This document shows, one piece after another, positions 30,400-33,300 of a DNA stretch of 64,000 nt. This DNA is from Escherichia coli (GTDB lineage: Bacteria > Pseudomonadota > Gammaproteobacteria > Enterobacterales > Enterobacteriaceae), in NCBI RefSeq assembly GCF_009931435.1, contig NZ_CP043414.1; one strand, 5' to 3'. The position numbers are program-made. The stretch's first letter is position 1; the number at the start of each line of letters is the position of its first letter.

Positions 30400-33300
30400 T
30401 GAATTTTATAACCCAGAACGGGCGTCAGAAATGACGCCTTTTTTATTGCAGAAAAGCGAGAGGTAATTATGCGTAAACTTTATGCCGCCATTTTGTCCGC
30501 AGCCATTTGTCTGGCCGTATCAGGTGCGCCTGCATGGGCGTCTGAACATCAGTCCACGCTGAGCGCGGGGTATCTTCATGCCTCGACGAACGTTCCCGGC
30601 AGCGATGATCTGAACGGGATTAACGTGAAATACCGTTATGAGTTTACGGACACACTGGGGATGGTGACGTCATTCAGCTATGCAGGAGACAAGAATCGCC
30701 AGCTGACTCATTACAGCGATACCCGCTGGCATGAAGATTCCGTTCGTAACCGCTGGTTCAGCGTAATGGCGGGGCCGTCTGTGCGCGTGAATGAATGGTT
30801 CAGCGCGTATGCGATGGCGGGTGTGGCTTACAGCCGTGTGTCGACTTTCTCCGGGGATTATCTCCGCGTAACTGACAACAAGGGGAAAACGCACGATGTG
30901 CTGACCGGAAGTGATGACGGTCGCCACAGCAACACGTCTCTGGCGTGGGGAGCTGGCGTGCAGTTTAACCCGATCGAATCCGTGGCCATTGATATTGCTT
31001 ATGAAGGCTCCGGCAGTGGCGACTGGCGCACTGACGGTTTCATCGTGGGTGTCGGTTATAAGTTCTGATTAGCCAGGTAACACAGTGTTATGACAGCCCG
31101 CCGGTTCAGGAGGGCTTTTTTGTGGGGTGAATATGGCAGTAAAGATTTCAGGTGTACTGAAAGACGGCACAGGAAAACCGGTACAGAACTGCACAATCCA
31201 GCTGAAAGCAAAACGTAACAGCACCACGGTGGTGGTGAACACGCTGGCCTCAGAAAATCCGGATGAAGCCGGGCGTTACAGCATGGACGTTGAGTACGGG
31301 CAGTACAGCGTTATTCTGTTGGTGGAGGGATTCCCGCCGTCACATGCCGGGACCATCACCGTGTATGAAGATTCCCGACCCGGTACGCTGAATGATTTTC
31401 TCGGTGCCATGACGGAGGATGATGCCCGTCCTGAGGCACTGCGCCGTTTTGAACTGATGGTGGAAGAGGTGGCGCGTAACGCGTCCGCGGTGGCACAGAA
31501 CACGGCAGCCGCGAAGAAGTCAGCCAGCGATGCCGGCACATCAGCCCGTGAGGCGGCAACCCATGCGACTGATGCTACAGGCTCAGCAAGCGCAGCCAGC
31601 ACGTCAGCCGGACAGGCCGCGTCGTCGGCTCAGTCAGCATCTTCCAGCGCAGGAACGGCATCAACAAAGGCCAGTGAAGCATCGAAAAGTGCTGCTGCTG
31701 CAGAGTCCTCAAAAAGCGCGGCAGCTACCAGTGCCGCTGCGGCGAAAACGTCAGAAACGAATGCGGCAGCGTCACAACAATCAGCAGCCACTTCTGCATC
31801 CGCCGCGACCACGAAGGCGTCAGAAGCAGCCACCTCAGCCCGGGATGCGGCGGCCTCAAAAGAGGCAGCGAAATCATCAGAAACGAACGCATCCTCGAGC
31901 GCCAGTAGTGCCGCTTCCTCGGCAACGGCGGCAGGCAATTCCGCGAAGGCGGCAAAGACGTCTGAGACAAACGCCAGGTCTTCTGAAACGGCAGCGGAAC
32001 AGAGTGCCTCAGCTGCGGCAGGCTTAAAAACAGCGGCTGCGTCGTCTGCCAGTGCAGCGTCAACAAGTGCCGGGCAGGCCTCAGCCAGTGCTAGCGCCGC
32101 CGGAAAATCGGCAGAAAGCGCCGCATCGTCCGCTTCAACAGCCACAACGAAGGCTGGCGAAGCCACTGAACAGGCCAGCGCAGCAGCGAGGTCTGCTTCC
32201 GCAGCGAAGACATCCGAGACGAACGCGAAAGCGTCGGAAACCAGCGCAGAATCCTCAAAAACGGCTGCCGCATCGTCCGCCAGTTCGGCGGCGTCATCGG
32301 CATCATCTGCGTCTGCTTCAAAAGATGAGGCGACCAGACAGGCATCAGCAGCGAAAGGCAGCGCCACGACGGCATCCACGAAGGCGACAGAGGCAGCTGG
32401 TAGTGCGACGGCGGCAGCACAGAGCAAAAGTACAGCAGAATCCGCGGCAACGCGCGCCGAGACAGCAGCAAAACGGGCAGAGGATATTGCATCCGCCGTG
32501 GCGCTTGAGGATGCGAGCACGACGAAAAAGGGGATAGTACAGCTCAGCAGTGCGATCGACAGCACTTCCGAGTCACTGGCGGCAACGCCAAAAGCCGTTA
32601 AGGCCGCGTATGACCTGGCTAACGGGAAATACACCGCACAGGATGCAACGACAGCACAGAAAGGGATAATCCAGCTAAGCAGCGCGACCAACAGCACGTC
32701 TGAAACGCTGGCGGCAACGCCAAAGGCAGTAAAAGCAGCCAATGACAATGCTGAGAAACGTCTGCAGAAAGATCAGAACGGTGCGGATATCCCTGGCAAA
32801 GACACCTTTACGAAAAATATTGGTGCCTGCCGTGCCTTCGGTGGGTCAGTAAGCACAACAACAGGAAACTGGACGACTGCACAGTTTATCGAGTGGCTGG
32901 ATTCTCAGGGAGCATTTAACCATCCATACTGGATGTGCAAGGGTTCCTGGTCTTATGGCAATAATAAAATCATTACTGATACTGGCTGCGGTAATATTCA
33001 TCTCGCCGGAGCTGTCATTGAAGTAATGGGGATAAAGTCAGCGATGACGATCCGCATTACCACACCGACCACCTCCACTGGTGGTGGAACAACTAACGCC
33101 CAGTTTACCTATATTAATCACGGAACAGATTATTCACCTGGCTGGCGAAGGGACTATAACTCCAGAAATAAGCCAACGGCATCAGAGATCGGGGCGTTAC
33201 CGTCAGGTGGAACAGCAGTATCATCAGTTAATCTGTCTTCAAAAGGTCGGGTAACCGCGCTGACAGACAATACGCAGGGGGCAACAGGTCTTGAGTTATA

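Follow-up and report, generated by a model that had tools for sequence, protein, structure and literature searches.

The DNA analysed here is a 64,000-nucleotide (nt) stretch of Escherichia coli contig NZ_CP043414.1 (assembly GCF_009931435.1), called the window throughout, and the element in question is an Ala/Ser/Thr-rich tract in stf, the side tail fibre gene of a lambdoid prophage whose tail end spans window positions 27004 to 35419. The genes and features of this region are collected in Table 1. The gene order is J-lom-stf-tfa, with a Caudo_TAP gene downstream of stf, and the same order is annotated in relatives; the tract, which an earlier note on this DNA had located inside stf, does indeed lie within a lambda-type gene. 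The true start of stf is the ATG at 31133, which has a GGGGTGA ribosome-binding site just upstream and from which the protein begins MAVKISG, like lambda Stf and the PDB 9e7m chain. The open reading frame (ORF) listing begins the gene two codons earlier, at GTG 31127 (a 1009-codon ORF), and this GTG falls within the ribosome-binding site. Residue numbers given as ORF amino acids (aa) count from GTG 31127, and those given as Stf aa count from ATG 31133.

Table 1. Features of the prophage tail region and of the reading frames overlapping stf (window coordinates).
Feature	Position	Strand	Evidence or remark
J	27004-30402		
lom	30469-31068		Ail_Lom, E=1e-120
stf, side tail fibre gene, 1007 aa	31133..34156	+	Pfam phage_tail_N (PF08400), E=1.4e-71
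StfN collar domain	31133..31414	+	PDB 9e7m/9mgh
Linker and helix start, larger hydrophobics (F, M, V)	31415..31468	+	same heptad register as tract
Ala/Ser/Thr tract, probable proximal coiled-coil rod	31469..32497	+	49 unbroken heptads A-x-x-S-A-x-x, Stf aa 113-455
Sole DNA tandem repeat in stf (CGGCATCAT x2.1)	32289..32307	+	Tandem Repeats Finder
Two Phage_fiber_2 repeats	32508..32746	+	132-nt unit, 75% identical
Domain homologous to Mu tail fibre protein S/S'	32747..33217	+	PDB 8ju3 residues 178-334
Receptor-binding tip homologous to T4 gp37	33512..34153	+	PDB 2xgf, E=5e-86
tfa, tail fibre assembly protein (Caudo_TAP)	34156..34731	+	E=2.1e-42
Serine invertase, pinQ-like	34829-35419	-	
108-aa antisense ORF, frame -2	31276..31602	-	judged spurious
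165-aa ORF, frame +2, Arg/Gln/Pro-rich product	31530..32027	+	judged spurious
372-aa antisense ORF, frame -2, TTG start	31630..32748	-	judged spurious; counterpart of lambda orf206b
113-aa ORF, frame -3	31725..32066	-	judged spurious
161-aa ORF, frame +2	32052..32537	+	judged spurious
133-aa ORF, frame -3	32091..32492	-	judged spurious

Homology searches describe Stf as a mosaic in which a lambda StfN collar is joined to the Ala/Ser/Thr tract, followed by a pair of Phage_fiber_2 repeats, a Mu S-like domain and a T4 gp37-like tip. The tract comprises 1029 nt and 343 residues, 74% of which are Ala, Ser or Thr (132, 84 and 39, respectively, among the 346 residues scored at ORF aa 115 to 460), and the motifs KTSETNA and SAASSA occur three times each. 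This richness in three small residues and the recurrence of motifs had both been recognized in the earlier note, which went on to call the repeats degenerate and of low complexity. That description does not hold. Position 1 of the heptad is Ala in 47 and Val in 2 of the 49 repeats, position 4 is Ser in 36 and position 5 is Ala in 35, with no shift of register; a 50th heptad, VALEDAS, follows, and the flanking heptads place larger hydrophobic residues in the same register (F, M and V before the tract; I, V and L after it). Consistently, identity autocorrelation peaks only at lags that are multiples of 7 (7, 14 ... 56; z = 7.8-9.9) and is flat or negative at all others. The structured tract also differs in extent (31469-32497) from the interval previously assigned to it, 31530-32560, which runs from the ATG of a +2-frame ORF into the first Phage_fiber_2 repeat. 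The DNA contains dispersed repeats that match one another at 67-85% over 25 nt, with spacings that are nearly always multiples of 21 nt. Tandem Repeats Finder returned no array between 31000 and 34300, only a 9-nt unit in 2.1 copies, a 19-nt micro-repeat at about which one database relative (P0037) lacks 3 aa (SSAASSASS versus SSA---ASS).

Variation among homologues follows the heptad. Among nine homologues of the same length, amino-acid columns varied in 0/49 cases at position 1, 3/49 at position 4 and 5/49 at position 5, compared with 60/196 for the rest of the heptad (Fisher p = 1.4e-9), a position dependence that reads as the signature of a packed core. An AlphaFold2 (AF2) monomer model of aa 95-475 is predicted to be helical throughout (helices 4-186 and 191-364), with a mean predicted local distance difference test score (pLDDT) of 86. 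Unbroken heptad periodicity, predicted helix and conserved core positions a and d, which are among the criteria for a coiled coil, are thus all found in the tract. We conclude, with a probability of about 0.9, that this tract provides a lambda-type Stf with its proximal alpha-helical coiled-coil rod and that the additional ORFs crossing it are harmless by-products of its codon make-up.

According to this interpretation, three Stf chains would wind into a parallel trimer, whose core would be packed with the Ala, Ser and Ala of heptad positions 1, 4 and 5, all of them small. As a stiff spacer, the rod would keep the distal receptor-binding modules, i.e., the Phage_fiber_2 repeats, the Mu-S-like domain and the T4-gp37-like tip with its seven HxH pairs, away from the tail. 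An alpha-helix rises by ~0.148 nm per residue, so that 50 heptads would span roughly 52 nm, versus ~36 nm for the 35 heptads of lambda. For the parallel trimeric state, the spacer role and these lengths in nanometres, we infer or draw on the literature. In Ur-lambda, cryo-electron microscopy, cryo-electron tomography (cryo-ET) and AlphaFold3 (AF3) were combined to assign gpStf residues 1-91 to a collar, 92-101 to a linker and 102-393 to a trimeric proximal coiled coil, which is followed by a hinge and the distal part; the proximal rod is rigid by cryo-ET (PMC12617516). The Ur-lambda fibres are trimers on the tail, four per virion, and the StfN collar attaches each of them to the tail tube (PMC12617516). 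The lambda side tail fibre had also been listed among long coiled-coil proteins in a 2005 proteome survey (PMC1322226). The feature is real and explained, and has already been described for lambda itself; it is ordinary and does not change current understanding.

Several observations weigh against this conclusion. The core positions of the rod are occupied by Ala and Ser, whereas canonical coiled coils use Leu, Ile or Val, and sequence alone cannot give the oligomer state or the packing. At model residues 187-190 the AF2 monomer turns back into a hairpin, probably a single-chain modelling artefact; lambda gpStf showed the same fold-back artefact with AF3 (PMC12617516). Indels of -3, +3, +61, -34 and -1 aa interrupt the heptad frame in a small number of database proteins, many of them singletons or partial proteins from draft assemblies. 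Finally, one of the alternative reading frames, -3, has 3 stops in the tract against 8.5 +/- 2.3 in codon shuffles, so that composition alone does not account in full for its openness, a discrepancy that we regard as minor.

Tract length was compared first within E. coli, in an evenly spaced sample of the 12,520 E. coli matches that yielded 43 full-length ones at 88-99% identity. No net indel was present in 41 of them. One of the other two (L012) had lost 3 nt, and with them an Ala from a GCT run within the tract; the second carried 132 additional nt outside the tract, corresponding to an extra Phage_fiber_2 unit. This 44-aa unit is behind the one sizeable indel of the sample, and its copy number ranged from zero to four across the sets examined (two in the window, three in FORC_041 and SW070912 and one in lambda). 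In the proteins, we scored tract spacing as the distance between conserved anchor motifs at the tract ends, counting fibres with both anchors. Of 119 close database proteins, 112 had a spacing of 343 residues; among 46 complete IMG/VR fibres it was 343 in 40, 238 in five and 329 in one, all multiples of 7. Further spacings in database proteins were 315, 238, 231 and 119, those of 231, 238 and 119 coming from cluster representatives. Alternatives of 45, 34 and 33 heptads recurred in more than one protein, and those of 47 and 17 heptads appeared once each. An off-register spacing of 90 residues was found in three representatives, and the -3, +3, +61 and -34 variants mentioned above, which are relative to 343, were all singletons, many of them partial draft-assembly proteins. 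Whole Stf proteins range from 514 to 1260 aa with an unchanged N-terminal domain, mainly because their distal modules differ.

The tract therefore does not qualify as hypervariable. Changes in its length are rare and usually comprise whole heptads, and the predominance of whole-heptad blocks in the wider family points to rare recombination rather than hypermutability. The suggestion in the earlier note that such repeats are candidates for length variation, to be checked by comparing stf across related prophages, gains weak support from the wider family, which does vary. Invariance of the tract, which the note had named as a refutation, is nearly reached among close relatives (41/43, 112/119 and 40/46) but not in the wider family, and no slippage-prone repeat is present. 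A contingency tract evolving by slippage of DNA repeats was also considered and rejected, given the lack of near-identical head-to-tail units and of frequent length differences in close relatives.

The same data bear on a broader alternative, namely, that the tract is a disordered low-complexity linker whose repeats readily expand and contract, making it a contingency-type length-variable region. A composition of ~74% Ala, Ser or Thr, short recurring motifs, small indels at the only micro-repeats (the 9-nt unit in P0037 and the GCT run in L012) and unequal tract lengths among family members are what such a linker might display. It is nonetheless highly improbable in the face of a register kept perfect over 49 repeats, amino-acid constraint that follows heptad position, a predicted helix (pLDDT 86) and the rigid proximal rod of lambda resolved by cryo-ET (PMC12617516). 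The absence of an array by Tandem Repeats Finder and of any net indel in 41/43 sampled E. coli matches, together with the fact that the most recurrent alternative lengths are multiples of 7 residues, argues in the same direction. These whole-heptad steps speak for a coiled-coil rod. It is tempting to read them further as the mark of a selected trait, with rod length tuning the reach of the tip through O-antigen or capsule of differing thickness, an idea that we regard as speculative and rather improbable. Unequal recombination between the degenerate heptad-coding repeats would then make discrete arms of ~17, of 33-35 and of 45-50 heptads, with lengths from about 18 to about 52 nm, and the 50-heptad form that is common among prophages of E. 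coli would reflect adaptation rather than an accident of history.

The tract is also where homology to other fibres is lost. Many E. coli fibres, as well as that of phage Ayreon, match only to query position 595, i.e., window nt 31974, inside the tract. The L-shaped tail fibre protein pb1 of T5 shares 116 nt (3001-3116) at 79% identity with window 31859-31974, with the same end point, and the fibre of another E. coli prophage (L013), which has an S74 C-terminal domain, runs from lambda-like into T5-like heptads. This common loss of homology at 31974 suggests that the fibres share a recombination junction within the heptads, and the tract, with its conserved sequence, may provide a joint for recombination. 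Taken further, the junctions, the 19 heptads of the same type in pb1, the lambda-to-T5 hybrid and the spread of Stf lengths (514-1260 aa) behind a constant N-terminal domain could mean that the tract, through its conserved and repetitive DNA, is chiefly a homologous-recombination linker for swapping distal receptor-binding modules between unrelated fibres, its rod structure being secondary. We consider this unlikely, though not far-fetched: position-specific constraint and conserved whole-heptad lengths indicate selection on protein structure, and junctions in conserved segments are general to mosaic phage genes and no proof of function. Irrespective of their origin, the whole-heptad length classes and mosaic junctions are useful for the engineering of fibre chimeras.

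The remaining part of our conclusion concerns the reading frames that overlap the tract. The earlier note had reported long ORFs in all frames and on both strands, which it took not to be genes. ORFs of 108-372 aa do occur on both strands (165 and 161 aa on the plus strand; 372, 133, 113 and 108 aa on the minus strand). They are confined, however, to frames +2, -2 and -3; frame +3 and the in-register antisense frame -1 are closed by 11 and 25 stops, respectively, within the 1029-nt tract. A single stop in frame +2 (32025) parts the 165-aa from the 161-aa ORF and is missing in most relatives. The open frames contain 1 (+2), 1 (-2) and 3 (-3) stops, compared with ~8-9 per frame in mononucleotide shuffles of the same 1029 nt, so that their openness exceeds chance. 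Shuffling the order of codons reproduced the observed counts in four frames (1.3 stops in +2, 12.6 in +3, 25 in -1 and 1.7 in -2). The long ORFs in +2, -2 and -3 arise because 67% of the stf codons in the tract have C at the second position. With such codons, +2 triplets would begin with C and -2 triplets with G, so neither can be a stop, whereas -3 triplets would end in G, leaving TAG as the sole possible stop. In the closed frames, TCA Ser codons would read as TGA in -1, and an A in second position of the following codon allows TGA or TAA to arise in +3 across the codon boundary. On the plus strand, the boundary triplet CTA (a codon ending in CT followed by one starting with A), which is TAG in frame -3, seems to be avoided; this avoidance may underlie the deficit of stops in that frame.

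We examined substitutions in eight relatives with tracts of identical length (88-99% identical) for selection on each frame. Of the variable sites, 42 fell on the first, 34 on the second and 152 on the third position of stf codons. Differences were silent in stf in 68% of cases, in frame -2 in 63% and in the four other frames in 10-17%, the high value for -2 resulting from the coincidence of its wobble (third) positions with those of stf. As the plain synonymous fraction did not separate stf from -2, it was replaced by a test on discordant classes with a transversion-only control. Changes silent in stf but not in -2 filled 20 of 171 opportunities, and those of the reverse class 4 of 172 (odds ratio 5.6, p = 6e-4). 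For transversions, being silent in -2 made no difference (10.5% versus 11.4%, p = 0.76). An extra stop interrupts frame -2 at 32419 in six of the eight relatives, and the stops of +2 and -3 shift position. Selection therefore acts on the stf frame only, and the overlapping frames lack independent conservation. Pfam scanning of the six alternative-frame products gave no hit above the cut-off, the only one scoring 15.3 bits (E = 0.021) against a gathering score of 27 bits.

These results leave very little room for a real gene nested in stf, for which the 372-aa antisense ORF would be the likeliest candidate. Its great length, the annotation of a counterpart (orf206b) in the lambda reference and the 63% of substitutions that are synonymous in frame -2 all invite that idea. 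However, codon shuffling reproduces the openness, and the synonymous fraction is the one expected when the third positions of +1 and -2 coincide. No added constraint is left after the transition/transversion control, and changes that alter stf but are silent in -2 are strongly depleted (4/172). The start codon is TTG, the product belongs to no Pfam family above cut-off and the stop at 32419 is shared by 6/8 relatives. Knock-down by CRISPR interference (CRISPRi) aimed at lambda orf206b caused no plaque defect (PMC10695390), which is weak evidence, as stf is also dispensable. We regard a nested gene as exceedingly improbable, and the view that the overlapping ORFs are not genes is upheld by the lack of Pfam families, of extra constraint in -2 and of an intact -2 frame in most relatives. 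The by-product interpretation of these ORFs matters mainly for annotation: the tract reliably yields long false ORFs, the lambda reference has long carried orf206b, and the second-position C rule (+2 and -2 wholly open, -3 closed only by TAG) offers a simple filter for false gene calls. At least one automated phage annotation is affected: in the record of ev099 (NC_049953.1, 2751-3613), RefSeq calls two antisense "hypothetical proteins" over the tract; the "tail protein" of that record begins only at 3619, so that the 5' half of stf is absent. A 426-aa antisense ORF inside J (window 28348-29628, minus strand), longer than those of stf and not in a low-complexity region, is probably spurious as well.

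Beyond the tract, ORF residues 796-1009, the predicted tip, align end to end with residues 28-242 of the 2xgf chain. Each of the seven HxH pairs, which lie at Stf aa 866-981 (nt 33728-34075), is aligned with a counterpart in T4 gp37, where paired histidines hold seven iron ions according to the literature. The His-rich motifs that the earlier note had seen in the C-terminal part are thus real, lie outside the interval 31530-32560 and represent known biology. Upstream of stf, the segment following lom (window 31076-31132) contains a GC-rich hairpin and a T run and resembles a terminator. The DNA flanking the prophage is 99% identical to pinQ-ynfT-ydfK-ydfJ-ydfI, and the prophage therefore sits at the Qin site of the E. 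coli chromosome; it appears to be a full-length lambdoid prophage where K-12 has the defective Qin prophage. These genes make up its right flank (window 35400-39600), and the best match among 5426 complete E. coli genomes is 99.1% identical. A search of 32500-36200 found only three short imperfect inverted repeats, with no gix/pix-type arrangement, no convincing inverted crossover sites and no alternative tail-fibre segment next to the pinQ-like invertase. An invertible segment at this place was accordingly rejected, and the invertase after tfa looks like an orphan. No tRNA was found in a scan of the window.

Comparison with known systems starts with coiled coils that are alike in design. In alanine-core coiled coils (Alacoil, "alanine zipper" designs and honeybee silk), Ala at core positions gives tightly packed helices; the resemblance to the tract would be one of analogy and not of homology, and the oligomer state or strand orientation may differ. 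T4 gp37 (PDB 2xgf, E=5e-86) resembles the tip over its entire length, with the seven HxH motifs in register; the loops between these motifs differ, metal binding is known for T4 and receptor specificity is presumably different. T5 pb1 shares with Stf 19 Ala/Ser/Thr heptads, KTSETNA motifs and the 116-nt segment of 79% identity, but its N-terminal attachment and distal parts are unrelated and its rod would be much shorter.

Closer relatives are found among lambdoid prophages. The best whole-gene match to stf, in E. coli PEC389 (3754-6777), is 98.6% identical; it is recorded as a pseudogene, interrupted by a stop codon, whereas the window copy is intact. E. coli K-12 StfR, from the cryptic prophage Rac, and many RefSeq "prophage tail fiber N-terminal domain-containing proteins" have the 49-heptad spacing and 94% DNA identity; StfR differs in its length (1120 aa) and in its distal modules. 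At least 80% of the tract query is present in 3588 of 5426 complete E. coli genomes. The fibre is very common in E. coli prophages, and the tract would be its spacer arm. Lambda Stf has the same collar (ORF residues 3-96 match the lambda collar PDB 9e7m, E=1.3e-51), the same J-lom-stf-tfa order and, starting likewise at aa 113, A-x-x-S-A-x-x heptads of identical register; the shared tract DNA is 83% identical. It differs in having 35 heptads instead of 50; the difference is a single 105-residue block in the protein alignment and a net 315 nt in the BLAST match, i.e., 15 heptads. Lambda also has one Phage_fiber_2 repeat rather than two, and the Mu-S-like domain is present here; stf of lambda PaPa is frameshifted, while that of the window keeps its reading frame. 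Lambda orf206b (NP_040603, "hypothetical protein", complement 20147-20767) occupies the same strand and frame relative to stf as the 372-aa antisense ORF and is 83% identical to it over 118 aa; it is shorter (206 aa) because the lambda tract is shorter. In Ur-lambda, the gpStf residues homologous to the window tract are 102-393, which comprise 35 heptads.

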